Below are positions 1,589 through 22,877 of a DNA stretch of 40,477 nt, one piece after another (positions within the stretch are counted from its first letter, which is position 1; each line of letters starts with the position of its first letter). Source of the DNA: Escherichia phage P694. The DNA is taken from the sequence record NC_028863.1. One strand, given 5' to 3'. The notes below the pieces were generated by a model, which was not told where the DNA came from, did not search any database, and saw only the letters and a program-made list of their open reading frames with translations. Position numbers and translations under genes: made by a program.

Positions 1589-3348
1589 TGTCACAATCCC
1601 AAGAAGCTAAGAATGCGTTAATCATTGCGCAACTTAAGGGTGATTTTGTTGCTTTCTTATTCGTCTTATGGAAGGCTCTGAACTTACCTAAACCAACCAA
1701 GTGTCAGATTGATATGGCACGTACACTCGCTAATGGTGACCACAAGAAGTTTATCCTTCAGGCGTTCCGTGGTATCGGCAAGTCCTTTATCACCTGTGCG
1801 TTCGTTGTGTGGGTCTTATGGCGTGATCCTCAACTTAAGGTGCTCATCGTGTCTGCCTCTAAGGAACGTGCTGACGCTAACTCCATCTTCATCAAGAACA
1901 TCATTGACCTGCTGCCATTCCTCGCTGAGTTAAAACCTCGACCGGGACAGCGTGACTCTGTGATTAGCTTCGACGTTGGCTTGGCGAAACCCGACCACTC
2001 ACCCTCTGTGAAGTCTGTGGGTATCACTGGTCAGTTAACTGGTAGCCGTGCTGACATCATCATTGCAGATGACGTTGAGGTTCCCGGCAATAGCTCTACG
2101 AGTTCGGCCCGTGAGAAGCTCTGGACGTTGGTAACTGAGTTTGCTGCGTTACTTAAGCCACTGCCTACCTCTCGTGTTATCTACCTTGGCACACCTCAAA
2201 CCGAGATGACGCTCTACAAGGAACTTGAGGATAACAAAGGGTACAGCACTGTAATCTGGCCTGCACAGTATCCACGTAATGACGCTGAGGCTCTCTACTA
2301 TGGGGACCGCTTGGCTCCGATGCTTAAGGCTGAATACGATGAAGGCTTTGAGTTACTTCGTGGTCAACCTACTGACCCTATTCGATTCGATATGGATGAC
2401 CTCCGTGAACGTGAACTCGAATATGGCAAAGCTGGCTACACGCTTCAGTTCATGCTTAACCCGAACCTTAGTGATGCCGAGAAGTACCCGCTACGACTCC
2501 GTGACGCTATCGTGTGCGCTGTGGACCCTGAACGTGCCCCATTGTCTTACCAGTGGTTGCCGAACCGTCAGAACCGCAATGAGGAACTCCCTAACGTTGG
2601 TCTGAAGGGTGATGACATCCATGCGTTCCATACGTGCTCTTCTCGTACCGCTGAGTATCAGTCTAAGATTCTGGTCATTGACCCAAGTGGTCGTGGTAAG
2701 GATGAGACCGGGTATGCAGTCCTGTACTCACTTAACGGTTATATCTACTTGATGGAAGTCGGTGGGTTCCGTGGTGGTTACGATGATGCTACCCTAGAGA
2801 AGCTCGCTAAGAAGGCCAAGCAGTGGAAGGTACAGACAGTCGTCCACGAGTCCAACTTCGGTGATGGTATGTTCGGTAAGATTTTCTCTCCGATTCTCCT
2901 GAAGCACCACAAGTGTGCCTTAGAGGAAATCCGTGCTAAAGGCATGAAGGAGGTGCGAATCTGCGATACTATCGAACCATTGATGGGTGCGCACAAGCTG
3001 GTCATTCGTGATGAGGTTATCCGTGAGGACTACCAGACTGCTCGTGACCTTGATGGGAAACATGATGTTCGCTACAGTGCGTTCTATCAGATGACCCGTA
3101 TGACCCGTGAGCGAGGCGCTGTGGCACACGATGACCGACTTGATGCTATCGCATTGGGTATCGAGTTCCTGCGTGAAGGGATGCTTGTGGACAGCCGTGT
3201 AGGTGAAGAAGAGATGACCCTTGAGTTCCTTGAACACCACATGGAGAAACAGACCATTGGTGGTGATGCTATCCATAGCTACGATGTTGGTGGCGTGGAC
3301 ATCTACTACGAGGACGATGGAGACTCTAGCTGCTTCATTGAGTGGTAA
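1588..3348 (+). CDS. 19: Terminase large subunit (DNA maturation protein B)
   Basis: 586 aa, same length as T7 gp19 with high similarity as recalled; ATG overlaps the 18.5 stop. Confidence 0.95.
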
Positions 3349-3859: not shown

Positions 3860-4300
3860 AACCCTTATGTACCCTCTATGGTCTACAGGGTCTCTTAGGG
3901 TCTCACCTTATGATAGAGCCTCTGTGGTTAACCTTATGAGAGACTTGATGTACCCTTTAAGAATCCTACAGAAAAATCTGAGTGGGTATCTCATAGTTCA
4001 TACACACCGAGTTCCCCCTATGGCCTCCTTCAGTCCCACCCAAAGAGTGCCACCCCTTATGATAACTTATGGTTTACTTAATGTCAATCCTTATGTGAGA
4101 CATTGGGTTAACTCTAGGTGTTACCACTAGATGTGGTGCTTAGAGTGACCTTATGACCACTATATGTAGTCCTCTCTGTGTCCCTATCTGTAATCACCTT
4201 ATGTTTCCTCTTAGAGTTAACACCTTATGTCACCTCTTATTAGCTACGCTAACCTTAATGTTACTCCTTATGGCTGCCTCTCCTTATGTTAACCTTCAGT
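3860..4300. repeat. Array of short dispersed CCTTATG-type repeats in the genome-end region
   Basis: At least 10 copies of (A/C)CCTTATG at irregular spacing (e.g. 3865, 3907, 3932, 4046, 4091, 4151, 4198, 4224, 4268, 4284); analogous to the CCTAAAG repeats at the T7 ends. Confidence 0.7.
3990..4200. repeat. Predicted location of the collapsed direct terminal repeat; physical left end near 3990 (approximate)
   Basis: TCTCATAGTTCATACACACCGAGTTCCCCCTATGG resembles the T7 left terminus TCTCACAGTGTACGGACC...TTCCCCCATAGGG; CTCTCTGTGTCCCTATCTGT (about 4175..4195) matches a T7 terminal-repeat segment. Confidence 0.35.
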
Positions 4301-4366
4301 CGGTGCCTTCAGTCTATAGACACCTATCGTTACCACTCTTAGACCAGCCTTAAAGACCATACAGCT

Positions 4367-4391
4367 AATGCGACTCACTATTGAGAATGGT
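4367..4391 (+). promoter_or_regulatory. Phage RNAP promoter variant (phiOL-like)
   Basis: TAATGCGACTCACTATTGAGAATGG; degenerate relative to the consensus seen elsewhere in the window. Confidence 0.5.
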
Positions 4392-4482
4392 TGTTTATAG
4401 TCTTATTACTATTCCCTTCCTTATAGGCTAACTTAAAGAGACTTAAAGAGACTCTGAGACTACTTAAAGTTTCAACTAGGGG

Positions 4483-4511
4483 TTGACTCTAAGAAACAGC
4501 TGTGAGACTAT
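4483..4511 (+). promoter_or_regulatory. Candidate host sigma70 early promoter (A1-like)
   Basis: TTGACT, 17-bp spacer, GACTAT; position upstream of the early genes as in T7. Confidence 0.45.
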
Positions 4512-4617
4512 AGCAACCGTTGAGAGACACAACGCTACCAACTACCAGACAAGACCGCGAGTTATCTGGTAATGCTGAAGAGTCTCAAGTAGTCATCAAC
4601 CAGACATAAGAAAGTGG

Positions 4618-4646
4618 TTGACTCAACGAAAGAAATAACGTAGTAT
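4618..4646 (+). promoter_or_regulatory. Candidate host sigma70 early promoter (A2-like)
   Basis: TTGACT, 17-bp spacer, TAGTAT. Confidence 0.55.
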
Positions 4647-4712
4647 AGCAGTCGTCAACAACTGGTCGCCCTATGAAACAACATGAGGTGTCACGGTGAC
4701 AAACAAAAGTAG

Positions 4713-4742
4713 TTGACAGGCAGTAAAGTTAAGATGTAAGAT
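4713..4742 (+). promoter_or_regulatory. Candidate host sigma70 early promoter (A3-like)
   Basis: TTGACA, 18-bp spacer, TAAGAT. Confidence 0.55.
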
Positions 4743-4860
4743 GTACGACATGCAGTAAGGGTGTAGGGATAGGAACCGAGAAACCTGCCCGTGACCCGCC
4801 AAGGATAAGGCACTAGCCGTGAGTCGAATTCGGTCACTCATCGCATAAAAGAATAACAGG

Positions 4861-4889
4861 TTGACAGTCTCCTTTAAAAACTGTAAGCT
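4861..4889 (+). promoter_or_regulatory. Candidate additional host sigma70 promoter
   Basis: TTGACA, 17-bp spacer, TAAGCT. Confidence 0.4.
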
Positions 4890-5080
4890 GTACCACATGC
4901 ACTACATAACGTTCTTGTGAGGTCACACACTGAAAGTGACTCGGTGCTAACAAACCTGCACTTAAAGTTCTTTAACAATTTGGTCGTGTAATTCCCTTAC
5001 TGCGGGACAGGTAGTCAAGAACTACGGGGATGACGTGAACGCACAAGCGTTTAACCAGTGATGACGCCGACTGATAGCGA

Positions 5081-5136
5081 TTAACTCAAGGGCGCACATT
5101 AAGTAACAACGTGTGCTCTTTATGATAATCACTAAC
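5081..5136 (+). promoter_or_regulatory. RNase III-like hairpin upstream of the SAM hydrolase gene
   Basis: aactcaagg + hairpin + ctttatgata motif. Confidence 0.5.
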
Positions 5137-5156
5137 ACACATAATGAGGCACTATC

Positions 5157-5615
5157 ATGATTTACACTAACGAACCTGCAAACGTATTCTATGTACTGGT
5201 ATCAGCGTTCCGCTCCAACCTCTGCGATGAAGTCAATATGAGCCGTCATCGTCACATGGTTAACTCACTGCGTAATGCACCACTTGAATACGGTAGCGTT
5301 GAGTCTACAAATTTGACTGGTTGTTATCGAGAGGTTATCGCAAGTGCACCAACTGAGGAACTGACCGTTCGTGTACGCTGTGCTAACAAAGCTCAAGCAA
5401 TAGCGGTTGCACGTCTGGCGTGTAACGAGTTCGAGCAAGATTGTGTATTGGTCTATAAGTCACAGACGCACACGGCTGGCTTAGTGTACGCTCAAGGTAT
5501 TGCTGGCTATAAAGCTGAACGTCTGCCGGGTAGCTTCCAAGAAGTGCCTAAAGGCGCACCGCTTCAAGGTTGCTTCACGATTGATGAGTTCGGTCGCCGC
5601 TGGCAAGTACAGTAA
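5157..5615 (+). CDS. S-adenosylmethionine hydrolase/lyase (T3 gene 0.3-type anti-restriction)
   Basis: 152 aa; very similar to phage T3 SAMase as I recall it (MI.T.EPA.VFYVLVSAFRSNLCDEVNMSRHRHMV ... GCFTIDEFGRRWQVQ). Confidence 0.85.
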   Translation: MIYTNEPANVFYVLVSAFRSNLCDEVNMSRHRHMVNSLRNAPLEYGSVESTNLTGCYREVIASAPTEELTVRVRCANKAQAIAVARLACNEFEQDCVLVYKSQTHTAGLVYAQGIAGYKAERLPGSFQEVPKGAPLQGCFTIDEFGRRWQVQ

Positions 5616-5618
5616 GCG

Positions 5619-5668
5619 ATAAACTCAAGGTCGCTCCACGCGAGTGGCCTTTATGATTATCACTTTAA
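5619..5668 (+). promoter_or_regulatory. RNase III-like hairpin (R0.3-like), near-identical copy 1
   Basis: 49 bp differing at about 3 positions from the copy at 6216..6265. Confidence 0.55.
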
Positions 5669-5697
5669 CCTATACACACACTATGAGGTAACACAAG

Positions 5698-6060
5698 ATG
5701 GCTATGTCTAACATGACTTATAACAACGTTTTCGATCACGCTTACGAAATGCTGAAAGAAAATATCCGTTATGATGACATCCGTGACACTGATGACCTGC
5801 ACGATGCAGTGTACATGGCTGCTGAAATCGCCGTTCCGCACTATTACAGTGACGTTTTCAGCGTAATGGCTAGCGAAGGCATTGACCTTGAGTTCGAGGA
5901 CTCTGGTCTGATGCCGGACACCAAGGACGTAATCCGTATCCTGCAAGCGCGTATCTATGAGCAATTAACGATTGACCTTTGGGAAGACGCTGAGGACTTA
6001 CTGAACGAGTATCTTGAGGAAGTCGAAGAGTCTGAAGAGTACGAGGAGGATGAAGAGTAA
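5698..6060 (+). CDS. ocr: Ocr, DNA-mimic anti-restriction protein (T7 gene 0.3-type)
   Basis: 120 aa, strongly acidic, near-identical to T7 Ocr as recalled ([37 protein letters not shown]...). Confidence 0.95.
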
Positions 6061-6215
6061 TGGCTAACAACACCACGCAATACGGTCTGACCGCTCAAAC
6101 TGTACTGTTTTATAGTGACATGGTGCGCTGTGGCTTTGATTGGTCGCTCGCAATGGACCACCTTAAGGAACTGTACGAAAACAACAAGGCAATAGCCTTG
6201 GAGTCTGCTGAGTAA
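6060..6215 (+). CDS. 0.4: gp0.4-like (T7 FtsZ inhibitor homologue)
   Basis: 51 aa, ...QYGLTAQTVLFYSDMVRCGF.WSLAM..LKELYENNKAIALESAE matches T7 gp0.4 as recalled; ATG overlaps the ocr stop. Below the ORF-track length cutoff. Confidence 0.8.
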   Translation: MANNTTQYGLTAQTVLFYSDMVRCGFDWSLAMDHLKELYENNKAIALESAE

Positions 6216-6260
6216 TAAACCCAAGGTCGCTCCTAGCGAGTGGCCTTTATGATTATCACT
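6216..6260 (+). promoter_or_regulatory. RNase III-like hairpin (R0.5-like), near-identical copy 2
   Basis: Direct repeat of 5621..5669. Confidence 0.55.
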
Positions 6261-6284
6261 TTAACATGCAATAGGACTAACACC

Positions 6285-6485
6285 ATGAGTAAACTTCTGG
6301 CAACATCTAAAATCAAAGGCCAACACACTGTAACACTGCGAGAGTATGATCACGGGGCAATGGGTAGCACCTACGTTGTGCGATACGGTAAACAAGTCAC
6401 ACATTGGGTAAACGAGGTTTTGGCACAGGAGGAGTATCAAGCCTGTATGATACACCAAGCAACATGTGCAGGCTGGAATGACTGA
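6285..6485 (+). CDS. Hypothetical early protein (gene 0.5 position)
   Basis: 66 aa from ATG 6285 with AGGA-like RBS; the upstream in-frame ATG 6240 lies inside the hairpin. Confidence 0.5.
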   Translation: MSKLLATSKIKGQHTVTLREYDHGAMGSTYVVRYGKQVTHWVNEVLAQEEYQACMIHQATCAGWND

Positions 6486-6518
6486 TGACGCTATTTGCAC
6501 TCTATGAGGTAACACCAC

Positions 6519-6716
6519 ATGTTATATACATTTGTTGCACTCGTTTACACTCTAATCGCGCTGTACTTCCTTCGAGACTTCCGCAATGGTCTCAAGGTAC
6601 ACAAGGCTAACTTCTCGCACCTGAAGTATGGCTTTCTACCACGATTCACAGCCCGTGAACGTAACGGGCGCTTTAAGGCTAACAAGGTAGGTATCTTCTA
6701 TGTTGCAACACACTGA
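6519..6716 (+). CDS. Hypothetical early protein with hydrophobic N-terminus (gene 0.6 position)
   Basis: 65 aa; GAGGT RBS; a +1-frame ORF 6700..6864 overlaps its 3' end. Confidence 0.5.
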   Translation: MLYTFVALVYTLIALYFLRDFRNGLKVHKANFSHLKYGFLPRFTARERNGRFKANKVGIFYVATH

Positions 6717-6864
6717 TAGTTTAACTAAGAAAGTTCTGTACACACTGGCATATGGTGCTACCAACAAGACTCTAATGCGATCATTGCACCTGAAGCGGCT
6801 ACCAGCCAGAAAGGTGGCAAAGGCACGTAAAGAAGCGCGTTTAATCCTCAATTCTCTCTCTTAA
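6700..6864 (+). CDS. Small basic ORF (54 aa) overlapping the end of the gene 0.6-like ORF; possible 0.6B-type extension or independent gene
   Basis: ATG 6700 (AAGGTAGG upstream) to TAA 6862..6864; basic tail KRLPARKVAKARKEARL. Confidence 0.3.
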   Translation: MLQHTDSLTKKVLYTLAYGATNKTLMRSLHLKRLPARKVAKARKEARLILNSLS

Positions 6865-6891
6865 AGTCTCAACTAAATAGGACACAATCTA

Positions 6892-7977
6892 ATGAACTAC
6901 ACCGACATTCAGGCACGTCTGGAAATCATCAAGTCTCTACCGCTTAGCGAACTGGACAAGCGCCAGCCTCTTTTGGTCGAACTGGCTGCTGACATCGTGA
7001 ACGGTGAAACGTGCGATGGTAACGCCACCGATGGCTCGAACGGCTTGGAGTATCAGGACTGGTGGCACACATTGGGTGCACTGATGTGTGATGCAGGTTT
7101 CCGCATGTTGGGTAATGGTCACTTTAGTGCGGCATACTCGCATGAACTGTTACCGGGTCGAGTCATCAAGGTTGGCTTTAAGAAAGAGGATTCAGGCGCT
7201 GCATACACTGCATTCTGTAGGATGCACCAAGGCCGAGCGGGTATCCCTAACGTCTATCACGTAGCACGTCATGCAGGTTGCTATACGGTCGTACTGGACC
7301 GCTTAAAAAGCTGTGACGACGATAATGATGACCATGGGGCATACGCTGACATCGCGCGTTGCTTTGTGGAGTCGGATTACTATGACTCAAGCGACTTTGC
7401 ACCGGGTGACTACGAGTTCATCGAGACATGCAAGATGATTCGTGAGTTCTTCAACGGTATTGCATCTTTCGACATGCACAGCGGGAACATTATGTTCGAC
7501 GATAACGATGTTCCGTACATCACTGACCCGGTGAGTTTCTCACATGACCGTGAACGTGAGGACGGTTTCCCTCTGGACCCGGAAGCACTGATTGCCGAGG
7601 TCGAGGCGATAGCTAACGAGCGCATCATTGAACGTTGTCGCAACCGCAAGGCCAAGCGTGACCCTAATGGAACCTTTCAGGTTAACCGCAAGGCCAACAT
7701 GAAACGCCGTAAGTGCAACCGTAAGTTACACGTCAAAGGCATGGCACAGTTTGTTAAAGGTCGCATCGAACGCAGGGCCATTGATAGAAACGAACGCCGT
7801 GCTGAGATGCTCATGGGGTCTGCATGGAATAACTTCTGGTTCCGCAATGGTCCCTCAGCGGCACGCAAGGTTGAACAAGTGAACGGCCTTAAGTGGCAAC
7901 TAGGGGACCGCCTCGCAATCCAAGCGGGTCTCCCTCTGAATATCGACAAGGTACTTGACGCTCAACTGATGGGCTGA
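6892..7977 (+). CDS. 0.7: Ser/Thr protein kinase, host shutoff (T7 gp0.7-like)
   Basis: 361 aa; conserved motifs GNGHFSAAYSH, VIKVGFKKEDSGAAYTAFCRM, FDMHSGNIMF as in T7 gp0.7. Confidence 0.9.
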   Translation: MNYTDIQARLEIIKSLPLSELDKRQPLLVELAADIVNGETCDGNATDGSNGLEYQDWWHTLGALMCDAGFRMLGNGHFSAAYSHELLPGRVIKVGFKKEDSGAAYTAFCRMHQGRAGIPNVYHVARHAGCYTVVLDRLKSCDDDNDDHGAYADIARCFVESDYYDSSDFAPGDYEFIETCKMIREFFNGIASFDMHSGNIMFDDNDVPYITDPVSFSHDREREDGFPLDPEALIAEVEAIANERIIERCRNRKAKRDPNGTFQVNRKANMKRRKCNRKLHVKGMAQFVKGRIERRAIDRNERRAEMLMGSAWNNFWFRNGPSAARKVEQVNGLKWQLGDRLAIQAGLPLNIDKVLDAQLMG

Positions 7978-7984
7978 TAAGGTG

Positions 7985-8028
7985 TATCTTCAAGGTCGGC
8001 ACTGACTGCTGGCCTTTATAGATAAACT
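7985..8028 (+). promoter_or_regulatory. RNase III-like hairpin (R1-like)
   Basis: caaggtcggc...ggcctttatagat motif between the kinase and RNAP genes. Confidence 0.5.
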
Positions 8029-8050
8029 TTCTTAACAACGTGAGGCAACA

Positions 8051-10702
8051 ATGACTAACGTAATCAACGCACCAAAGAACGACTTCTCTGACATCGCTAA
8101 CGCAATCATGCCATACAACATTCTGGCTGACCATTACGGTGCACAGCTTGCAGCTACACAGCTTGAGTTAGAACATGAAGCGCACACTGAAGGCGAGAAG
8201 CGTTTCCTTAAGGCAATGGAACGTCAAATCAAAGCGGGTGAGTTCGGTGATAACGCAGTGGCTAAACCGCTCCTGTCATCTCTCGCACCAAAGTTTATCG
8301 AGGCGTGGAACACTTGGTTCACCGAGGTGGAAGCGAAGCGTGGCAAGCGTCCAGTGGCCTACAATCTGGTACAGAAGGTTGCACCTGAAGCGGCTGCTTT
8401 CATCACACTGAAGGTCACGCTGGCTTGCTTGACGAAAGAAGAGTTTACCAACCTGCAATCGGTCGCCACTAAGATTGGTCGTAGCATTGAAGATGAGTTA
8501 CGTTTCGGACGCATTCGTGATGAAGAAGCGAAACACTTTAAGAATCACGTACAGGAGGCACTGAACAAGCGCGTTGGTATCGTCTACAAGAAAGCATTCA
8601 TGCAAGCCGTAGAAGGCAAGATGTTAGACGCTGGTCAACTGCAAACCAAGTGGACTACATGGACACCTGAAGAATCAATTCACGTTGGTGTGCGCATGTT
8701 GGAACTGCTCATCGGGTCTACTGGTCTCGTTGAGTTACACCGACCGTTTGCTGGTAACGTTGAGAAGGATGGCGAGTACATCCAGTTAACCGAACAATAC
8801 GTTGACCTGTTATCTAAACGTGCTGGTGCACTGGCTGCAATCGCTCCAATGTATCAACCTTGCGTGGTCCCTCCTAAGCCTTGGACGAGTCCGGTCGGTG
8901 GCGGCTATTGGGCTGCTGGTCGCAAGCCTCTCTCTCTGGTTCGAACTGGTTCCAAGAAGGGACTTGAGCGTTACAACGACGTGTACATGCCTGAAGTTTA
9001 CAAGGCGGTGAACATCGCACAGAATACTCCTTGGAAGATTAACAAGAAGGTTCTGGCAGTGGTCAATGAGATTGTGAACTGGAAGCATTGCCCGGTTGAC
9101 GATGTACCTGCTCTCGAACGTGGTGAACTGCCTGTCAAACCTGAAGACATCGACACGAACGAAGCGGCTCTGAAAGCGTGGAAGAAAGCGGCCTCCGCAA
9201 TCTATCGCAAAGAGAAGGCCCGTGTGTCTCGTCGCATGAGCATGGAGTTCATGTTAGGGCAAGCCAACAAGTTCGCACAGTTTAAAGCTATCTGGTTCCC
9301 GATGAACATGGACTGGCGCGGTCGTGTGTATGCTGTACCGATGTTCAACCCGCAAGGCAACGACATGACCAAGGGTCTGTTAACGCTCGCTAAAGGTAAA
9401 CCAATCGGTGTCGATGGGTACTACTGGCTGAAGATTCACGGTGCTAACACTGCTGGCGTGGACAAGGTGGACTTTGCAGAACGCATCAAGTTCATTGAGG
9501 ACAACCACGAGAACATCATGAGCGTTGCGGCTGACCCGATTGCTAACACTTGGTGGGCTGAACAAGACTCTCCGTTCTGCTTCCTCGCGTTCTGCTTCGA
9601 GTATGCTGGCGTTCAACACCACGGTATGAACTACAACTGCTCTCTGCCGCTGGCGTTCGATGGCTCTTGCTCTGGTATTCAGCACTTCTCTGCAATGCTT
9701 CGTGATGAAGTAGGTGGACGCGCTGTTAACCTGATGCCAAGCAAGGAAGTACAAGACATCTACCGCATCGTTGCCGAACGTGTGAACGAAATCCTGAATC
9801 AAGATGTTATCAACGGGACCGACAACGAAGTAGAGACAGTGACCAACAAGGACACAGGCGAAATCACTGAGAAGCTGAAGTTAGGCACGAAGGAACTGGC
9901 TGGTCAATGGCTGGCATACGGTGTAACTCGCAAGGAAACTAAGCGTTCGGTCATGACGTTGGCTTACGGTTCCAAAGAGTACGGCTTCCGTGACCAAGTT
10001 CTTGAGGACACCATTCAGCCAGCTATCGACGATGGCAATGGATTGATGTTCACTCAACCGAACCAAGCTGCTAGCTATATGGCTAAACTGATTTGGAACG
10101 CTGTAACGGTGACTGTGGTCGCAGCGGTTGAAGCGATGAACTGGTTGAAGTCTGCTGCTAAACTTCTGGCTGCTGAAGTCAAGGACAAGAAGACTAAAGA
10201 GGTTCTCCGCAAGCGCTGCGCGGTACATTGGGTAACACCTGATGGCTTCCCTGTGTGGCAGGAGTATCGCAAGGCAGTACAGACTCGTTTGAACCTGATG
10301 TTCTTGGGTCAGATTCGTTTGCAGCCTACTGTGAACACCAACAAGGATAGCGGAATTGACGCACGTAAGCAGGAGTCAGGCATCGCACCTAACTTTGTTC
10401 ACTCAATGGACGGCAGCCACCTGAGAATGACTGTAGTGCGCTCCAATGAGGTCTACGGTGTGGAATCCTTCGCACTGATTCATGACTCCTTTGGTACTAT
10501 CCCTGCTGATGCTGGCAACCTGTTTAAAGCAGTGCGTGAAACGATGGTCAACACTTACGAAGAGAACGATGTACTTGCAGACTTCTATGAACAGTTTGCG
10601 GACCAGTTGCACGAGTCACAGCTTGACAAGATGCCTGAGATGCCAGCTAAAGGCGCTCTCGACCTCCAAGAAATCCTGAAGTCAGACTTTGCGTTTGCCT
10701 AA
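8051..10702 (+). CDS. 1: Single-subunit DNA-directed RNA polymerase
   Basis: 883 aa, same length as T7 RNAP, near-identical over long stretches including the C-terminal ...FAFA. Confidence 0.98.
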   Translation: MTNVINAPKNDFSDIANAIMPYNILADHYGAQLAATQLELEHEAHTEGEKRFLKAMERQIKAGEFGDNAVAKPLLSSLAPKFIEAWNTWFTEVEAKRGKRPVAYNLVQKVAPEAAAFITLKVTLACLTKEEFTNLQSVATKIGRSIEDELRFGRIRDEEAKHFKNHVQEALNKRVGIVYKKAFMQAVEGKMLDAGQLQTKWTTWTPEESIHVGVRMLELLIGSTGLVELHRPFAGNVEKDGEYIQLTEQYVDLLSKRAGALAAIAPMYQPCVVPPKPWTSPVGGGYWAAGRKPLSLVRTGSKKGLERYNDVYMPEVYKAVNIAQNTPWKINKKVLAVVNEIVNWKHCPVDDVPALERGELPVKPEDIDTNEAALKAWKKAASAIYRKEKARVSRRMSMEFMLGQANKFAQFKAIWFPMNMDWRGRVYAVPMFNPQGNDMTKGLLTLAKGKPIGVDGYYWLKIHGANTAGVDKVDFAERIKFIEDNHENIMSVAADPIANTWWAEQDSPFCFLAFCFEYAGVQHHGMNYNCSLPLAFDGSCSGIQHFSAMLRDEVGGRAVNLMPSKEVQDIYRIVAERVNEILNQDVINGTDNEVETVTNKDTGEITEKLKLGTKELAGQWLAYGVTRKETKRSVMTLAYGSKEYGFRDQVLEDTIQPAIDDGNGLMFTQPNQAASYMAKLIWNAVTVTVVAAVEAMNWLKSAAKLLAAEVKDKKTKEVLRKRCAVHWVTPDGFPVWQEYRKAVQTRLNLMFLGQIRLQPTVNTNKDSGIDARKQESGIAPNFVHSMDGSHLRMTVVRSNEVYGVESFALIHDSFGTIPADAGNLFKAVRETMVNTYEENDVLADFYEQFADQLHESQLDKMPEMPAKGALDLQEILKSDFAFA

Positions 10703-10709
10703 CGGAATC

Positions 10710-10731
10710 TAATACGACTCACTATTGGGAG
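10710..10731 (+). promoter_or_regulatory. Phage RNAP promoter (phi1.1A-like); candidate primary replication origin region
   Basis: TAATACGACTCACTATTGGGAG followed by a GCCTTCGGGC hairpin and an AT-rich leader. Confidence 0.8.
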
Positions 10732-10792
10732 CCTTCGGGCTTCCTACACTTTAAGATAACTTTAAGTTCTAACTCTAAGAGGAAACAACATT

Positions 10793-10924
10793 ATGCGTAA
10801 CTTCGAAAAGATGACCAAAAGTTCCAACCGTAACGCTCATGACTTCGAGGCAACTAAGGGTCGCAAGTTTAATAAACCATTACGCACCCGTGCGCATAAA
10901 CGCTGCTGGAAGGAGGCACTCTAA
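10793..10924 (+). CDS. 1.1: gp1.1-like small basic protein, copy A (T7-like allele)
   Basis: 43 aa MRNFEKMTKSSNRNAHDFEATKGRK..., close to T7 gp1.1 as recalled; GAGGAAA RBS. Confidence 0.75.
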   Translation: MRNFEKMTKSSNRNAHDFEATKGRKFNKPLRTRAHKRCWKEAL

Positions 10925-11196
10925 TGGGACGCTTATACAGTGGTAACTTAATAGCATACAAAGACGCTATCGAACGACTTAAAGAAGACCATGATGCAAA
11001 TGTGGTCGTTGAGACTTATCGCTATGAGGACTTCGCACAGCGACGGATGGTCGCCGGAGAGACACTTCGAGTGGTCTTACGGAATGGCTTAATGCTGACC
11101 GCTAAGTGTTTCGAACAGGATGATGCAGACGTTCGCTGTAATGCACAGACTGAATGGCTCCGCAAGGTTCACAGTGATATGAAGCACTGGAAGTAA
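10924..11196 (+). CDS. 1.2: gp1.2-like protein, copy A (divergent allele); dGTPase-inhibitor family
   Basis: 90 aa; shares the N-terminal MGRLYSGNL.A.K and C-terminal ...KHWK with copy B but is divergent in the middle. Confidence 0.7.
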   Translation: MGRLYSGNLIAYKDAIERLKEDHDANVVVETYRYEDFAQRRMVAGETLRVVLRNGLMLTAKCFEQDDADVRCNAQTEWLRKVHSDMKHWK

Positions 11197-11216
11197 TACG
11201 ACTCACTATTGGGGAG
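11194..11216 (+). promoter_or_regulatory. Phage RNAP promoter (phi1.1B-like)
   Basis: TAATACGACTCACTATTGGGGAG followed by a leader near-identical to 10732..10792. Confidence 0.8.
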
Positions 11217-11266
11217 CCTATGGGCTTCCTACACTTTAAGTTCTAACTCTAAGAGGAAACAACATT

Positions 11267-11416
11267 ATGCGTACCAACTTTGAACCAACCACTAAGCGCA
11301 ACAACGTAATCAATGAACATGGTGCTGAATGGCAGGAACGTAAAGACCGCATGAAGAAACGTCACAAGACACAACGTGGCAACTCTGAGAAACGCAACTG
11401 GAAGGAGACAATCTAA
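11267..11416 (+). CDS. gp1.1-like small basic protein, copy B (divergent allele)
   Basis: 49 aa MRTNFEPTTKRNNVINEHGAEWQERKDRMKKRHK...; same leader and RBS as copy A. Confidence 0.65.
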   Translation: MRTNFEPTTKRNNVINEHGAEWQERKDRMKKRHKTQRGNSEKRNWKETI

Positions 11417-11673
11417 TGGGTCGCTTATACGGTGGGAATCTTAGCGCATTCAAGGCCGCTGCTGGTCGAATCTTTAAGCTGGACTTAGTTGTCACATGTG
11501 ATGAATGGTATGAAGCACATATTCGTCTTGAGTGTATCAGGCTGCGCATAGAGGACCGGGATGGTCGCCTTATCGACTCTACTATTTGTAGTCATCATGA
11601 CGAAGACGTTCTCTATAGCACTTGTACCAATTGGCTGAACCGTATGTATGACCAGTTGAAAGACTGGAAGTAA
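11416..11673 (+). CDS. 1.2: gp1.2, inhibitor of host dGTP triphosphohydrolase, copy B (T7-like allele)
   Basis: 85 aa, same length as T7 gp1.2 and very similar as recalled (...CIRLRIEDRDGRLID...HHDEDVLY..CT.WLN.MYDQLKDWK). Confidence 0.85.
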   Translation: MGRLYGGNLSAFKAAAGRIFKLDLVVTCDEWYEAHIRLECIRLRIEDRDGRLIDSTICSHHDEDVLYSTCTNWLNRMYDQLKDWK

Positions 11674-11694
11674 TACGACTCACTATTGCGAGAG
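11671..11694 (+). promoter_or_regulatory. Phage RNAP promoter (phi1.3-like)
   Basis: TAATACGACTCACTATTGCGAGAGG. Confidence 0.7.
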
Positions 11695-11741
11695 GTAAAC
11701 TCAAGGTCATCCGAAAGGTTGGCCTTTGTGATTAACTTTTG
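11695..11741 (+). promoter_or_regulatory. RNase III-like hairpin (R1.3-like)
   Basis: gtaaactcaaggtcatccgaaaggttggcctttgtgattaac. Confidence 0.5.
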
Positions 11742-11781
11742 TTTAAACATTAACCAATAACACACATATAGGAGTTCCACC

Positions 11782-12834
11782 ATGGAAATCACATTTAAGA
11801 CTTCGCCACATAAAGCTGTATCATTCGTTGAGTCTGCCGTTAATAAAGCCCTCGACAAAGCTGGCTACCTGATTGCTGACATTAAATATGATGGCGTTCG
11901 TGGTAACATTGTAGTTGACAATACGGCTGACTCTGCGTGGCTCTCTCGTGTCTCCAAAGAGATTCCTGCTCTGTCACATCTCAACGGGTACGACAAGCGC
12001 TGGGAGATGCTCCTGAAGGATGACCGCTGTATCTTCCCTGATGGATTCATGCTTGATGGTGAACTGATGGTCAAAGGCGTGGACTTTAACACAGGGTCTG
12101 GCTTACTGAGGACCAAGTGGCTCAAGCAGAAGAACTTCATGTACACTGATTGTTCTGAGTGGGGCAAGGACTGTAATGGAAAACCTTTTGAGCTAGACGT
12201 TAAGCGACTCAAGGTTGTTCTCTACGGTGTCATGCCGTTTGACTCTATGGTCTCCGGTGAGACCTACGAAGTGATGAACCTATTAATGCGTGAGCACGTT
12301 AAGGCTATGCTTCCTGTTCTGCGTGAGCACTTCCCTGAAATCGAATGGGACATCTCTGAGAGCTATGAAGTCTACGATATGGTAGAACTGAATGCCCTCT
12401 ATGAGAAAGCCCGTGCCGATGGTCATGAAGGTCTGGTAGTCAAAGACCCTCTGGGCTTCTACATGCGTGGCAAGAAGTCTGGCTACTGGAAGATGAAGCC
12501 TGAGTGTGAAGCTGATGGTGTCATCGTGGGACTCAACTGGGGTACTCCGGGTCTGGCTAATGAAGGTAAAGTGATTGGCTTCGAGGTTCTCCTTGAGTCC
12601 GGTCGCGTAGTCTCCGCTAACAATATCAGCCAAGCGTTGATGGATGAGTTCACCAATAACGTTTTTGATGCTACAAACATCCTAAATGTAAGAACTGAGA
12701 GTGATTGGGTTAACCCTTATCAGGGCTGGCAGTGCCAAGTGGCCTACATGGAACAAACTCCTGACGGTTCTCTGCGTCACCCATCGTTCGCTATGTTCCG
12801 TGGTGTCGAGTCAGACCCAACGGTCAAGATGTAA
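11782..12834 (+). CDS. 1.3: ATP-dependent DNA ligase
   Basis: 350 aa; adenylation motif KYDGVRG near residue 35; overall T7 ligase similarity as recalled. Confidence 0.92.
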   Translation: MEITFKTSPHKAVSFVESAVNKALDKAGYLIADIKYDGVRGNIVVDNTADSAWLSRVSKEIPALSHLNGYDKRWEMLLKDDRCIFPDGFMLDGELMVKGVDFNTGSGLLRTKWLKQKNFMYTDCSEWGKDCNGKPFELDVKRLKVVLYGVMPFDSMVSGETYEVMNLLMREHVKAMLPVLREHFPEIEWDISESYEVYDMVELNALYEKARADGHEGLVVKDPLGFYMRGKKSGYWKMKPECEADGVIVGLNWGTPGLANEGKVIGFEVLLESGRVVSANNISQALMDEFTNNVFDATNILNVRTESDWVNPYQGWQCQVAYMEQTPDGSLRHPSFAMFRGVESDPTVKM

Positions 12835-12844
12835 ACCAACAAAC

Positions 12845-12876
12845 GGTCAGTCCTTAACGGGGCTGGCCTTTTCGCG
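12845..12876 (+). terminator. Candidate intrinsic terminator (early terminator TE-like)
   Basis: GGTCAGTCC / GGGGCTGGCC stem (two G-U pairs) with TTAAC loop, followed by TTTTCGCGTTTC. Confidence 0.45.
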
Positions 12877-12880
12877 TTTC

Positions 12881-12901
12881 TATTAGACTCACTATGGAGG
12901 A
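12881..12901 (+). promoter_or_regulatory. Degenerate phage-promoter-like sequence
   Basis: TATTAGACTCACTATGGAGGA; shortened relative to the consensus. Confidence 0.35.
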
Positions 12902-12909
12902 ACGACCTC

Positions 12910-12990
12910 ATGCTATTTCTAATTGTTGCTATCATTGTTGCCACGTTTGCCCTCGTTATCATTGACGACAACTGCTGGCCTGATTGCTAA
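12910..12990 (+). CDS. Small hydrophobic peptide (26 aa; gene 1.4 position)
   Basis: MLFLIVAIIVATFALVIIDDNCWPDC; GGAGGA RBS 9 nt upstream. Confidence 0.4.
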   Translation: MLFLIVAIIVATFALVIIDDNCWPDC

Positions 12991-13010
12991 TACGACTCAC
13001 ATATGGAGGA
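12988..13010 (+). promoter_or_regulatory. Phage-promoter-like sequence overlapping the RBS of the next gene
   Basis: TAATACGACTCACATATGGAGGA. Confidence 0.45.
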
Positions 13011-13017
13011 CACAACT

Positions 13018-13242
13018 ATGTTAAGACTTCACTTCAACAAATCTAATGGCATATTCTCTGCTCGTGGCTCTGACCGTTCTACGGTGCTGGCCTCTGAGAA
13101 ACATGCAGTCATCCCTAAAGTGCTTGGTTCGATCATTGAGTTAGCACCCCGTGTTCACGCTGTGATTACGACTGGCTTATATAAAGAAGCGACCACTGGC
13201 TCCCGGCCTTTCATCCCGGGTTCTCGTCACGCGTTTCCCTAA
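13018..13242 (+). CDS. Hypothetical protein (gene 1.5/1.6 position)
   Basis: 74 aa from ATG 13018 with GGAGGA RBS at spacing 7; the upstream ATG 13003 has no RBS. Confidence 0.55.
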   Translation: MLRLHFNKSNGIFSARGSDRSTVLASEKHAVIPKVLGSIIELAPRVHAVITTGLYKEATTGSRPFIPGSRHAFP

Positions 13243-13281
13243 AGTCCGTCTGGTCATTGCACGTATCAAGGAGGTGCTCTA

Positions 13282-13791
13282 ATGTCACGTAACACAGGAA
13301 GATGTGATAGCACCACGTACTGTGAAGCATGTAATGGTGACGACCGCTATCCGCATGTTGGTAAGCCAATAGTTAACAAACCACAAGATAAAGAGGGTGT
13401 TCTAATGGGACTGTTAGATGGTGCAGCTTGGGAAAAAGAAAACCCGCCAGTACGAGCAACTGGGTGTATAGCTTGCTTAGAGAATGATGACCGCTACCCA
13501 CACACTTGCCCACAACATGTTGGTAAGCCAATAGTTAACAAACCACAAGATATAGAGGGTGTTCGGACTCCGAGCCACTATATGTTGTTTGATGACATTG
13601 AGGCTATCGAAGTGATTGCCCGGTCGATGACCCGCGAACAGTTCAAAGGGTACTGCTTAGGGAACATCCTTAAGTACCGCCTCCGTGCTGGTAAGAAATC
13701 CGAACTGGCATTCTTAGAGAAGGACATGGCGAAAGCTGGGTTCTACGGTGAACTGTACGAGAAACATAAGGACAAGTGCTATGATTATTAA
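13282..13791 (+). CDS. 1.7: gp1.7-like nucleotide kinase with an N-terminal in-frame duplication
   Basis: 169 aa; residues 42 onward (MGLLDGAAWEKENPP...CIACLENDDRYPHTC...) match the T7 gp1.7 N-terminus as recalled, and the C-terminus (...KGYCLGNILKYRLRAGKKSELA...) matches too; alternative start ATG 13405 also has an RBS. Confidence 0.8.
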   Translation: MSRNTGRCDSTTYCEACNGDDRYPHVGKPIVNKPQDKEGVLMGLLDGAAWEKENPPVRATGCIACLENDDRYPHTCPQHVGKPIVNKPQDIEGVRTPSHYMLFDDIEAIEVIARSMTREQFKGYCLGNILKYRLRAGKKSELAFLEKDMAKAGFYGELYEKHKDKCYDY

Positions 13792-13954
13792 GGTCGAGTA
13801 TGTGGGTGAAGATGATATGATGGCACTAGTTAAACGCCATGACATATTCTTTGCAGAGCGAACATGGGACGGTAAGTTCTATAAGATCATGAACAAGCAT
13901 GACGAAGAAGTATATCTTTCACGTAACGAGGTGATTGAATATGACGATGCTTAA
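13781..13954 (+). CDS. Hypothetical small protein (gene 1.8 position)
   Basis: 57 aa from ATG 13781 (AAGGA upstream), overlapping the gene 1.7 stop. Confidence 0.5.
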   Translation: MIIKVEYVGEDDMMALVKRHDIFFAERTWDGKFYKIMNKHDEEVYLSRNEVIEYDDA

Positions 13955-14045
13955 ACCTAGCGAATGGTGTGAGCGTATGTTTGAAAAGACAGGCAACACC
14001 GACTATCTTGAATTATACAATCAGTGGAAGGAGAGAGGACAATGA
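13941..14045 (+). CDS. Hypothetical small ORF (34 aa) bridging the gene 1.8-like ORF and gene 2
   Basis: ATG 13941 with GAGGTGA RBS; its stop overlaps the gene 2 ATG (ATGA). Confidence 0.3.
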
Positions 14046-14233
14046 GCAATTTAAACAAAGGGTCACTGGTCAACGGTGACAAGAAGTTCTTCGCAACGGT
14101 AGAAGGCCAAGGCCAATCGTTCGAAGTCCCTGTGTTCGCTGTGTCTCTTGAAGAGGCCAACGAGTTAGCTGAATGGCAATATGTCCCGGCTGGCTTCGCA
14201 GTGACACGCATCCGTCCAGACCGAAAGGTTTAA
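14042..14233 (+). CDS. 2: Inhibitor of host RNA polymerase (T7 gp2-like)
   Basis: 63 aa [22 protein letters not shown]...[18 protein letters not shown], close to T7 gp2 as recalled; strong RBS. Confidence 0.88.
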
Positions 14234-14254
14234 TAGGACTCACTATTGGGGAGA
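14231..14254 (+). promoter_or_regulatory. Phage RNAP promoter (phi2.5-like)
   Basis: TAATAGGACTCACTATTGGGGAGA followed by a GGGGAGAC...GTTTCCC 5' hairpin. Confidence 0.75.
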
Positions 14255-14302
14255 CACAACGTTTCCCATTTTAACTTGCAGAAACTTCAAAGGAGAATCA
14301 TT

Positions 14303-15007
14303 ATGGCATTCGCAAAACGTAAAGTATTCACTTCCGCTCGTGGTGTTGCTGAACCTTACTGCTATCTGGCTAAACCAGACTTCGGTAGTGGTGACTTCAA
14401 GAACGAACGTGGTGTCTACAAAGTATCACTGACTGTATCCAACGATGACCCTCGCTGTCAGAAAATGATTGACGAGATTGTCGAAGCCCATGAGACGGAC
14501 TATGCTGCTCGACTTGAAGAGTACGAAGCGAACCCGCCGAAAGTTGTCAAGGGTAAGAAACCGCTGAAGCCATATGTTGGCGACATGCCTTTCATGGATA
14601 ACGAAGATGGAACCACTACGTTCAACTTCAAGTGCTATGGCTCGTTCACTGACAAGAAGACTGGTGAGAACAAACCAATCGACTTGGCTATCGTGGACTC
14701 CAAAGGTAAGCGCATCCGTGGTGAGCGCCCAGCTATCTCTGGCGGCTCTGAACTGAAGATTAAATACACTCTGTTCCCTTACGGCTGGTCTGCTGTGGCG
14801 GGTGCATCCGTTAAGCTGCAACTGGATTCCGTGATGCTGATTAAGCTGGTCGAGTTCGGTGGTGGTGATGACGATTGGGGTGATGAAATCGAAGAAGATG
14901 GCTACGAAGCTGATGAAAGCCAGACCCGTCAACGTCCCCAAAATGATTCTGGTTGGAACGAAGAACCGGAAGATGAAGGCGACGAAGATGAAGATGGCGA
15001 CTTCTAA
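14303..15007 (+). CDS. 2.5: Single-stranded DNA-binding protein with acidic C-terminal tail
   Basis: 234 aa from ATG 14303 (AAAGGAGA RBS); acidic C-terminus ...EDEGDEDEDGDF as in T7 gp2.5. Confidence 0.92.
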   Translation: MAFAKRKVFTSARGVAEPYCYLAKPDFGSGDFKNERGVYKVSLTVSNDDPRCQKMIDEIVEAHETDYAARLEEYEANPPKVVKGKKPLKPYVGDMPFMDNEDGTTTFNFKCYGSFTDKKTGENKPIDLAIVDSKGKRIRGERPAISGGSELKIKYTLFPYGWSAVAGASVKLQLDSVMLIKLVEFGGGDDDWGDEIEEDGYEADESQTRQRPQNDSGWNEEPEDEGDEDEDGDF

Positions 15008-15453
15008 TGGCTAAGGGATATGCAGGTCGGGGCACTCGTGTGGGTGCCTTTCGCTCTGGCTTGGAGGACAAGGTAAGCAAACAGCTTGAGTCAAAGAACG
15101 TTAAGTTCGACTATGAGCGCTGGCGTGTACCATATGTTGTTCCTGCAAGCAACCATACCTATTGCCCGGACTTCCTGTTACCTAATGGCATCTTTGTGGA
15201 AACCAAAGGTCTGTGGGACAGTGAGGACCGCAAGAAACACTTGCTGATTCGTGAACAGTATCCTGAACTTGATGTTCGCATCGTGTTCTCTTCAAGCCGC
15301 TCCAAGCTGTACAAAGGGTCTCCGACCAGTTACGGTGAGTGGTGCGAGAAGCATGGCATTCTGTTTGCTGACAAGTTAATTCCAGTTGATTGGCTTAAAG
15401 AGCCTTCTAAGGATGTTCCATTCGATAAATTTAAAGAGGTGAAGAAGAAATGA
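15007..15453 (+). CDS. 3: Endonuclease I (Holliday junction resolvase)
   Basis: 148 aa; VGAFRSGLEDKVSKQLESK...PASNHTY.PDFLLPNGIFVETKG as in T7 gp3. Confidence 0.92.
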   Translation: MAKGYAGRGTRVGAFRSGLEDKVSKQLESKNVKFDYERWRVPYVVPASNHTYCPDFLLPNGIFVETKGLWDSEDRKKHLLIREQYPELDVRIVFSSSRSKLYKGSPTSYGEWCEKHGILFADKLIPVDWLKEPSKDVPFDKFKEVKKK

Positions 15454-15905
15454 GTAAGGTACAATTCAAACAACGCGCTGTGACAGAAGCAATCTTTGTC
15501 CACTGTAGCGCAACTAAGGCGACCATGAATGTTGGTCTGCGTGAAATCCGTCAGTGGCATAAAGAACAGGGCTGGCTTGATGTAGGCTACCACTTCATTA
15601 TTCGACGTGATGGTACAATCGAAGAAGGCCGTCCGGTCGGAGTCGTTGGGTCTCACGTTAAGGACTGGAACAGTAAGTCAGTCGGTGTGTGTCTCGTTGG
15701 TGGCATCGACGATAAGGGCAAGTACGAAGCTAACTTTACTCCAGCGCAGATGCACTCTCTTAAAGAGAAACTTGCAGACCTGCTGGACATGTATCCAGAT
15801 GCTGAAGTGAAAGCTCACCATGACGTTGCACCTAAAGCGTGTCCGTCTTTCAACTTGAGTCGCTGGCTGAAAACTGGCGAATTAGTAACTAGTGATTGGG
15901 GTTAA
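15450..15905 (+). CDS. 3.5: Lysozyme / N-acetylmuramoyl-L-alanine amidase (also RNAP inhibitor in T7)
   Basis: 151 aa; ...AIFVHCSATK...REIRQWHKEQGWLDVGYHFII.RDGT... as in T7 gp3.5. Confidence 0.93.
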   Translation: MSKVQFKQRAVTEAIFVHCSATKATMNVGLREIRQWHKEQGWLDVGYHFIIRRDGTIEEGRPVGVVGSHVKDWNSKSVGVCLVGGIDDKGKYEANFTPAQMHSLKEKLADLLDMYPDAEVKAHHDVAPKACPSFNLSRWLKTGELVTSDWG

Positions 15906-15909
15906 TACT

Positions 15910-16002
15910 ATGATGATTATTCACGAGATGGGTCTGTACGATTTGGTTTATCGCTTGGCCTTCATGCTGGCAATGGTCTACATTCTGACCCGAAAGGATT
16001 AA
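15910..16002 (+). CDS. Small hydrophobic peptide (30 aa)
   Basis: MMIIHEMGLYDLVYRLAFMLAMVYILTRKD; sits where T7 carries gene 3.8. Confidence 0.35.
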   Translation: MMIIHEMGLYDLVYRLAFMLAMVYILTRKD

Positions 16003-16022
16003 TAGAACTCACTATGGGAGGA
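16000..16022 (+). promoter_or_regulatory. Degenerate phage-promoter-like sequence
   Basis: TAATAGAACTCACTATGGGAGGA. Confidence 0.4.
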
Positions 16023-16072
16023 CCGAAAGGTTTCTCCCTTTGTTCGCTAAAATTGTATAAGGAGTAACCACT

Positions 16073-18028
<1,956 letters not shown>

Positions 18029-18036
<8 letters not shown>

Positions 18037-18241
18037 ATTCATCAACACTCTCGGTAAACTGGTAGTTAAAATGTACTTCCGTGAAGCTAAACGCCTGAAC
18101 GACAAGGCTCGCAAAGATGCTGCACAGGCACAACGCTTGGCTAAACAGGCACGTCTACTGTCTGAAGATGCAAGTGCTGGTGTAACGTCTGCTGCTAAGA
18201 TTGCAGCTAAAGCAACCGACCTCAACAAATTCTTTCTGTAA
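18029..18241 (+). CDS. 4.3: gp4.3-like protein
   Basis: 70 aa MFKFINTLGKLVVKMY.REAKRLNDKARKDA..., same length and similar to T7 gp4.3 as recalled. Confidence 0.75.
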
Positions 18242-18254
18242 GGAGTGACACATT

Positions 18255-18557
18255 ATGGCTATTAAATTCCCCGGCAACACAATCCGTCTGTCTGACACCA
18301 TCGACCAGTATGCTCGTCGAGTTCACATCAACGTTCGTAACGGCAAGGTAACTCTGGTCTACCGTTGGAAAGACCGTAAGTCCACCAAGGCGCACACACA
18401 GCGTGTAACTTTGGATGACACACAGACAGGTCGTCTGACGGCTTCCATTGCTGTAGCTGCTACTGTGGCTGTAGGTGAAGATAAGACTCGTGAACTCCTG
18501 CTGTCCAAAGTGGCTGGCGAAGAGGGCATGATTCTGGCTGCGAAGTCTGGAATCTAA
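18255..18557 (+). CDS. Hypothetical protein (gene 4.5 position)
   Basis: 100 aa; AAGGAG RBS. Confidence 0.6.
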   Translation: MAIKFPGNTIRLSDTIDQYARRVHINVRNGKVTLVYRWKDRKSTKAHTQRVTLDDTQTGRLTASIAVAATVAVGEDKTRELLLSKVAGEEGMILAAKSGI

Positions 18558-18560
18558 AGA

Positions 18561-18606
18561 GTTAAACTAAAGGTCATCTACGGGTGGCCTTAGTGATTAA
18601 CTTTTG
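18561..18606 (+). promoter_or_regulatory. RNase III-like hairpin (R4.7-like)
   Basis: gttaaactaaaggtcatctacgggtggccttagtgattaac. Confidence 0.5.
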
Positions 18607-18613
18607 TATGAAA

Positions 18614-18638
18614 TCTATTCAACTCACTAATGGGAGAA
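18614..18638 (+). promoter_or_regulatory. Phage RNAP promoter (phi4.7-like)
   Basis: TCTATTCAACTCACTAATGGGAGAA. Confidence 0.6.
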
Positions 18639-18645
18639 CAACACT

Positions 18646-19044: not shown

Positions 19045-19063
19045 ACTTTAAGGAGTAAACACA

Positions 19064-22843: not shown

Positions 22844-22877
22844 GTGTGTAACTCTAGGCATTCTTCTCTACGTGAAA

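Follow-up and report, generated by a model that had tools for sequence, protein, structure and literature searches.

The early region of Escherichia phage P694 carries a T3-type S-adenosylmethionine (SAM) lyase gene and a T7-type ocr gene in series, each preceded by an RNase III-like hairpin. The stretch of DNA analyzed here (the window; 40,477 nt, NC_028863.1) comprises all or nearly all of the genome of a T7-group podovirus (Studiervirinae), in permuted orientation, with its early region at about 4.6-9 kb. When window positions 1-25000 and 6300-20000 were used as megablast queries, Berlinvirus-type phages, including P483, nasanit, pO103, PZJ0206, and 285P, matched with 82-93% coverage and ~92% identity. 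The order of features in the window is promoter candidates, an R0.3-type site, the SAM lyase (SAMase) gene, an RNase III-type site, ocr, 0.4, an R0.5-type site, 0.5, 0.6, and 0.7, and the SAMase gene, ocr, the gp0.4 homologue, and the hairpins are all on the plus strand. The initial annotation had placed open reading frames at 5157..5615 and 5698..6060, followed by a gp0.4 homologue, and all three were recovered as described, at 5157-5615 (152 aa), 5698-6060 (120 aa), and 6060-6215 (51 aa, the gp0.4 homologue). The minus-strand open reading frames in the cassette region are short and overlapping.

Upstream of the first hairpin, two sigma-70-like early promoter candidates were present on the plus strand at 4618-4646 and 4713-4742, with 9/12 and 10/12 consensus positions, respectively. 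Since the promoter and terminator consensus scan returned counts no higher than those in shuffles, we assigned these promoters by synteny only, as their position corresponds to that of the A1-A3 promoters annotated upstream of R0.3 in T7 and T3. They would be expected to drive an early transcript carrying both cassettes.

The product of the first gene (5157..5615, plus strand) is a T3-type SAM lyase, the gene 0.3 product of T3, as judged from Pfam and PDB matches and from individual residues. It matched the S-AdoMet_lyase family PF23780 (E 1.3e-40; 138.8 bits, cutoff 28; positions 1-132 of the 133 in the profile), phrog_2226 (E 4e-52), and the solved T3 SAMase structures 7OCK/8BB1 (E 7e-89, residues 1-152 on 1-152), and its similarity to T3 SAMase is significant over the full length, with 88% amino acid identity. 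The protein had been proposed to be a T3-type SAM hydrolase; the T3-type homology held, but the T3 enzyme family is a lyase rather than a hydrolase (PMC7877911). Glu68, Gln94, and Asp95, at which mutants of T3 SAMase have reduced or abolished catalysis, are all present, and so are Thr4, Gln103, Thr104, and His105, which are reported to be strictly conserved for contact with MetK (bioRxiv 10.1101/2023.02.27.530186; PMC7877911). Gly55 and Tyr57, the presumed equivalents of Svi3-3 Gly56 and Tyr58, are present as well. The gene had a dN/dS of 0.04-0.13 relative to its relatives, and its product is predicted to cleave SAM, yielding MTA and homoserine lactone, and to bind and inhibit MetK.

The second gene is preceded by a leader at 5670..5697 (plus strand) that contains a directly readable GAGGT Shine-Dalgarno sequence in its ribosome-binding site (…CTATGAGGTAACACAAG ATG). 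This leader is 100% identical to the leaders in Yep_9 and P151 and is absent from P483. The 120-residue product of 5698..6060 (plus strand) is Ocr, the DNA-mimic anti-restriction protein encoded by gene 0.3 of T7, just as the initial annotation had it: the protein matched PF08684 (E 6e-61; 203.6 bits, cutoff 25; all 101 profile positions, 1-101) and, over its full length, the T7 Ocr structure 1S7Z (E 9e-68, residues 1-120 on 1-117). It shares 94% identity with T7 Ocr, has three extra residues inserted in its acidic C-terminal tail, and contains 36 Asp and Glu residues versus 6 Lys and Arg residues. No copy of this exact protein sequence was found in public assemblies. The ocr gene had a dN/dS of 0.05-0.14 relative to its relatives, and the window's Ocr would be predicted to bind and inhibit type I restriction-modification (R-M) systems or BREX PglX. 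The ATG start codon of the gp0.4 homologue (6060..6215, plus strand, 51 aa) overlaps the ocr stop codon. This protein matched phrog_7202 (E 1.6e-33), is 98% identical to its counterparts in Yep_9 and HZ2R8, and shares 84% amino acid identity with T7 gp0.4, which has the same length and the same position directly after ocr. FtsZ inhibition is the function reported for T7 gp0.4.

Three hairpins, all situated between open reading frames on the plus strand, delimit these genes. H1, an R0.3-type RNase III site, lies at 5073..5138, just upstream of the SAMase start (64.3 bits, E 3e-14; -17.1 kcal/mol, z -4.3). H2, an additional RNase III-type site, separates the SAMase gene from ocr at 5612..5669 (75.9 bits, E 3e-17; -19 kcal/mol), and H3, an R0.5-type site, closes the ocr-0.4 cassette at 6208..6265 (63.9 bits, E 4e-14; -16.7 kcal/mol). 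The three share a fold in which an internal loop separates a lower stem from a 10-bp upper stem, with energies of -16.7 to -19 kcal/mol and z-scores of -3.5 to -4.3, and no shuffle folded as well. This shape is the same as that of the annotated T3 R0.3 and R0.5 stem-loops and of the T7 hairpin after gene 0.4, to which H3 is 95% identical. The annotated T3 stem-loops also align to the window hairpins, with R0.3 aligning to H1. The counterpart of H1 that precedes SAMase is 96% identical to it in P483 and 100% identical in P151. H1 had been described as a third hairpin related to the other two, and our repeat search agreed, recovering it as a diverged third copy in two pieces (5076-5095 and 5110-5133) with a loop 8 nt longer.

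When positions 4300-7000 were compared with Rfam at E≤1, no family matched, so that T7-type RNase III sites are not curated there, and we built a covariance model from 12 hairpins of T7, T3, P483, A7, and AV103, including the annotated T3 R0.3 and R0.5 but no window sequences. The bit scores given above come from this model, which scored H1-H3 at 64-76 bits (E 1e-14 to 1e-17) and detected eight sites in the window, all on the plus strand. The five sites beyond H1-H3 are at 1040, 7977, 11688, 18555, and 22840, and the one at 7977 directly follows the kinase gene, where T3 annotates R1. Double changes that preserve pairing were present in 6 of the 19 pairs across the 12 sites; because the 12 sequences are closely related, these compensatory changes are moderate evidence for conserved structure. 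Given their fold, alignment, and model matches, H1-H3 belong with the other T7-type RNase III sites distributed along the genome, and each would be predicted to be cut by RNase III. The proposal that each anti-restriction gene lies behind its own RNase III-like hairpin thus agrees with all three lines of evidence, which point to the T7-group type. For the hairpin before ocr, the RNase III type was borne out, but it is not T7's own R0.3; rather, it is an R0.5-type hairpin fused to the ocr leader.

The ocr-0.4 cassette is enclosed in a repeat-bounded unit (5619..6265, plus strand). Its 51-nt direct repeats at 5619-5669 and 6215-6265 are identical at 48 of 51 positions (94%), lie 596 nt apart from start to start, and contain the near-identical pair first noted at 5621..5669 and 6217..6265. 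Allowing up to 3 mismatches, the 51-mer occurs only in these two copies in the window, and no such repeat match was obtained in 100 dinucleotide-preserving shuffles of the window. H2 and H3 are each 92-95% identical to T7 R0.5. The two near-identical hairpins are orthologues of this conserved site, and their similarity to each other is therefore no proof of a recent duplication. That the hairpin had recently been duplicated in tandem was set aside as an unnecessary assumption, because each copy resembles T7 R0.5 (92-95%) as closely as it resembles the other copy (94%).

Pairwise blastn comparisons with relatives located the junctions of the cassette. Two stretches of the window, 4600-5669 and 6211-6713, are matched by the SAMase-only phage P483, whose one hairpin after SAMase (L006 3115-3169) can be aligned to either of the repeats, such that the window equals P483 plus 596 nt, consisting of ocr-0.4 and one hairpin copy. 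T7 matches window positions 5685-6263 (ocr, 0.4, and R0.5) and does not match H2 through its own R0.3, while Yep_9, a Teseptimavirus ocr phage, matches continuously from 5645 to 6499. Since the P483 homology ends at 5669 and the Yep_9 homology begins at 5645, the crossover zone is 5645-5669 (~25 nt), which lies within the conserved CCTTTATGAT…CACT 3' arm of H2. H2 is chimeric: its 5' flank, which is the 3' end of the SAMase gene, and its stem are those of a post-SAMase R0.5, while its 3' side runs into a Teseptimavirus ocr leader. Segment identities are likewise mosaic: the SAMase segment shows 94-97% identity to Berlinviruses, and the gp0.4 segment shows 97-99% identity to Yep_9 and HZ2R8. 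On the right-hand side, both parental types match 6211-6499. The middle hairpin of phage A7 is a mirror-image chimera, in which the 5' part resembles T7 R0.5 and the 3' side carries a SAMase leader. In all seven of the other SAMase- and Ocr-encoding phages examined, the two genes lie in separate modules bounded by model-detected hairpins.

We consider it highly probable that the window is a Berlinvirus-like T7-group phage in which two anti-restriction cassettes were joined in series by recombination at their hairpins. The parents would have been a SAMase-carrying Berlinvirus and a Teseptimavirus-like phage carrying ocr-0.4, with the crossover occurring in the conserved 3' arm of paralogous hairpins, such that R0.5 after SAMase paired with R0.3 before ocr. 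A single unequal crossover during a mixed infection would be the simplest such history, and it would have left both the chimeric middle hairpin and the 51-nt direct repeat around ocr-0.4. The same repeats could also delete the ocr-0.4 cassette precisely. The suggestion that the hairpin repeats may mediate gain or loss of the cassette is supported by the difference from P483 and by the chimeric junction hairpins. Since homology breakpoints are expected beside conserved islands such as the hairpins, that the two co-locate is no proof in itself of a crossover inside the hairpins; the chimeric hairpins are the stronger evidence. By parsimony only, since most close backbone relatives found by megablast carry SAMase alone, the cassette would have been gained in the window's lineage rather than lost in its relatives.

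Since SAMase and Ocr are 88-94% identical to characterized proteins, we infer their functions and outline how the locus would work. Going by T7 and T3 biology, host RNA polymerase would transcribe this region during DNA entry, and RNase III would cut at the three hairpins, separating a SAMase mRNA from a single mRNA for ocr and 0.4, both of which would end in a 3' hairpin. Both proteins would then be made from the first transcript entering the cell, as separately processed mRNAs. By homology, the lyase would destroy SAM and bind MetK, starving SAM-dependent type I R-M and BREX systems, while Ocr, as a DNA mimic, would directly titrate the DNA-binding components of type I R-M and BREX. One phage would thereby combine two kinds of block, one catalytic and the other stoichiometric. 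SAMase and Ocr have each been reported to defeat type I R-M and BREX (10.1101/2023.02.27.530186; PMC12707154). More speculatively, the pair may afford faster or broader protection, and SAM-requiring systems that Ocr does not bind could still be hit by the lyase. Some abortive systems, such as PARIS, sense Ocr, and we speculate that SAMase might act as a back-up against these.

How often the two genes occur together was estimated with a tblastn search using a fused SAMase and Ocr query. Among 1019 phage records with either gene, 15 (~1.5%) carried both adjacent to each other, with adjacency requiring that the match cover at least 80% of the fused query. The true number may be higher, as diverged Ocr homologues and widely spaced genes would escape detection. 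At least 10 named phages carry the pair among the matches listed, which cover 14 of the 15 records: P151, A7, AV103, Ebrios, IME15, avDM11-UST, KFSA9, PZL-Ah1, RPN15, and IME278. The tandem phages are filed under at least four genera (Berlinvirus, Teseptimavirus, Teetrevirus, and Kayfunavirus). Using the two proteins as separate queries against IMG/VR, we retrieved 43 loci, among which the tandem was present only in the isolates A7 and IME15 and in no metagenomic example. Thus, the tandem is unusual, as first proposed, in the sense of being rare, but it is not new, since these named phages already carry it and several of their records annotate both genes. The pairing is rare and already deposited, and the window adds a further case to an arrangement that is uncommon but known. 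Reviews and collection papers have described the gene 0.3 locus of T7-group phages as encoding either Ocr or SAMase (e.g. PMC8594841), and the A7 paper lists both genes without comment (PMC8427288). Our searches, which covered literature outside subscription papers, found no explicit discussion of their co-occurrence, although this is weak evidence.

This rarity bears on whether the tandem is a short-lived intermediate, in which one gene is dispensable and is lost through the repeats and the pair has no combined function. Such a transitional redundancy would fit the low frequency of the arrangement (15/1019 matching records), the resemblance of SAMase-only relatives to precise repeat-mediated deletions of ocr-0.4, and the fact that type I R-M and BREX are targets of both proteins. 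However, the SAMase and ocr open reading frames are intact in both the window and P151, and comparison of the two genomes, at dS of 0.11-0.23, yielded a dN/dS of 0.13 for SAMase and of 0.14 for both Ocr and gp0.4. Purifying selection has therefore acted on both genes since these genomes diverged, which argues against a decaying intermediate. The pairing is also found in several genera, in either gene order and with more than one type of hairpin, suggesting that it has been retained repeatedly. On balance, we regard a transitional state as unlikely.

It is more improbable still that the hairpins are convergent or conserved processing signals only and that the cassette arrived by some other route, such as illegitimate recombination. 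The hairpins are conserved across the subfamily for processing, so that their similarity needs no history of recombination, and the right-hand breakpoint region (6211-6499) is matched by both parental types. Yet the left junction falls within a 25-nt zone inside a hairpin 3' arm, A7 carries the mirror-image chimera, and the difference between P483 and the window amounts to one cassette and exactly one repeat unit, all of which argue for exchange at the hairpins. Finally, that assembly mis-joined two co-occurring T7-group phages at a common ~55-nt hairpin, with no real genome carrying both genes, is barely credible: while the junctions fall exactly in a repeat common to both phage types, where assemblers can mis-join, and the exact window Ocr is not on record elsewhere, we rejected this explanation because the layout is common to independent isolates, with the independently sequenced P151 having an identical, collinear layout (93.4% identity over 4905-6709), AV103, RPN15, and A7 being further isolates with both genes, and the divergence between the window and P151 being synonymous-dominated in both genes, as in a real, evolving lineage.

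If the cassettes were indeed joined at their hairpins, the RNase III hairpins of Studiervirinae could more generally double as recombination joints through unequal paralogous crossovers, and carriage of both SAM lyase and Ocr could be a form of bet-hedging favored by selection, in which a catalytic inhibitor accompanies a stoichiometric one and backs it up where Ocr is sensed; we find the arguments for and against this wider proposal evenly matched. Were it true, hairpin crossovers such as R0.5 with R0.3 would stack, swap, reorder, or delete early anti-defense cassettes, and the model would account for the occurrence of the two gene orders, for the chimeric hairpins, and for the additional hairpin-bounded modules in other relatives. 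Our searches outside subscription papers found no literature discussion of RNase III sites as recombination points, which is again weak evidence. The result is incremental rather than surprising, and its main added value is the clear evidence for hairpin-located cassette exchange, with the chimeric hairpins suggesting a concrete mechanism by which strictly lytic phages could exchange counter-defense cassettes. Such exchange would be relevant to phage engineering and host-range prediction. Phages with both genes are also natural material for asking whether the two functions are redundant, additive, or complementary against type I/III R-M, BREX, and Ocr-sensing abortive systems.

Among known phages, P151 (PP083182, Berlinvirus) shares the window's order of hairpin, SAMase, hairpin, ocr, 0.4, and hairpin at 94.9% identity over 5000-6300. 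It differs from the window by ~5-7% nucleotide divergence and by a "0.5 region" that is 87% identical, and its intact SAMase open reading frame is unannotated in its record. Shigella phage vB_ShiP-A7 (MK685668, Berlinvirus) encodes both proteins at 96% amino acid identity each to those of the window, both annotated and flanked by RNase III-type hairpins, but its order is hairpin-ocr-hairpin-SAMase-hairpin, it lacks gp0.4, and its Ocr has 114 residues. AV103 (Escherichia, Teseptimavirus) and vB_SAg-RPN15 (Salmonella, Teetrevirus) have the window's order of SAMase, hairpin, ocr, a small open reading frame in the 0.4 position, and hairpin. In contrast with the window, their hairpins are T3-type, and their Ocr and SAMase proteins are only 53-73% and 86-87% identical, respectively, to those of the window; the joins in these two phages are therefore likely to be independent or much older. 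Ebrios, IME15, and IME278 have an extra small open reading frame between SAMase and ocr.

The two classical loci each resemble one half of the window. The T3 0.3 locus (R0.3, SAMase, R0.5) encodes an 88% identical SAMase whose stop codon likewise lies inside the downstream hairpin but, unlike the window, has no ocr or 0.4, with R0.5 leading directly to gene 0.6. The T7 0.3-0.4 locus (R0.3, ocr, 0.4, R0.5) shares Ocr (94%), gp0.4 (84%), the overlapping stop and start codons, and the downstream hairpin (95%) with the window, whereas the T7 R0.3 hairpin (GGGTATCGCAAGGTGCCC stem) is absent from the window, where an R0.5-type hairpin precedes ocr instead. The neighborhood of ocr has already been described as an accessory region, and co-localized anti-defense genes have been described generally. 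Like such anti-defense islands, the window has two counter-defense genes co-located in a variable early region; it differs from them in that its module borders are RNA-processing hairpins and in that both of its genes, going by homology, would target the same defenses by different mechanisms.

An intact SAMase ORF of 152 aa, 96.7% identical to the window SAMase, lies at 2660-3118 of the P151 locus (Escherichia phage P151), although the GenBank record of this phage lists Ocr alone and leaves the SAMase ORF unannotated. Censuses based on annotation will therefore undercount the SAMase-Ocr tandem. Immediately to the right of the cassette, the "0.5 region" of the window (6266-6499) is 94-95% identical to P483, which carries only the SAMase, and to the ocr-only phage HZ2R8 (L008). 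Since P151 is the closest match to the window across the cassette proper, yet reaches only 87% identity at 6266-6499, the comparison suggests that further recombination occurred around the "0.5 region" after SAMase and ocr were joined.

Shigella phage A7, in which ocr precedes the SAMase, lacks gp0.4 and encodes an Ocr of only 114 aa (L002 1380-1470, compared with window 6017-6225). At its shortened ocr, the junction reads GTCGAAGAGTCTG followed directly by CTGAGTGATAG, a sequence consistent with loss of the segment between two GAGTCTG microhomologies, the first close to the ocr 3' end and the second close to the 0.4 3' end. Downstream of R0.5, one or two additional hairpin-bounded modules occur in several ocr-only phages, with hairpins at 997, 1581, 1937 and 2230 in the EG1-like L017 and at 1453, 2037 and 2356 in HZ2R8 (L008 and L010); L016, L019 and L024 are further examples. 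Thus, hairpin-delimited early cassettes differ in number between relatives. Judging from a 31-nt repeat in the window (5670-5700 and 6491-6521, 81% identical, …CTATGAGGTAACAC…ATG), whose copies sit before ocr and before the ORF at 6519-6716, early cassettes also have translation-initiation leaders in common.

In the group comprising Ebrios, IME15 and Aeromonas phages, the Ocr-like gene is longer (about 175 aa; L052 1670-2194 in Ebrios, L041 about 1670-2190 in IME15), has only 44-54% identity to the window Ocr, and is separated from the SAMase gene by a small ORF. Met28 of the window SAMase ORF (position 5238) is conserved, and T3 has an in-frame internal start, gene 0.3B, annotated at the equivalent position; a second, shorter product from the window ORF is possible.

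The covariance model built from 12 hairpins of other phages predicted five more RNase III-type hairpins in the window, each on the coding (+) strand and with E between 1e-8 and 1e-3, at 1040-1096, 7977-8033, 11688-11744, 18555-18609 and 22840-22928. The hairpin at 7977-8033 lies directly 3' of the kinase gene, in the position that R1 has in T3.
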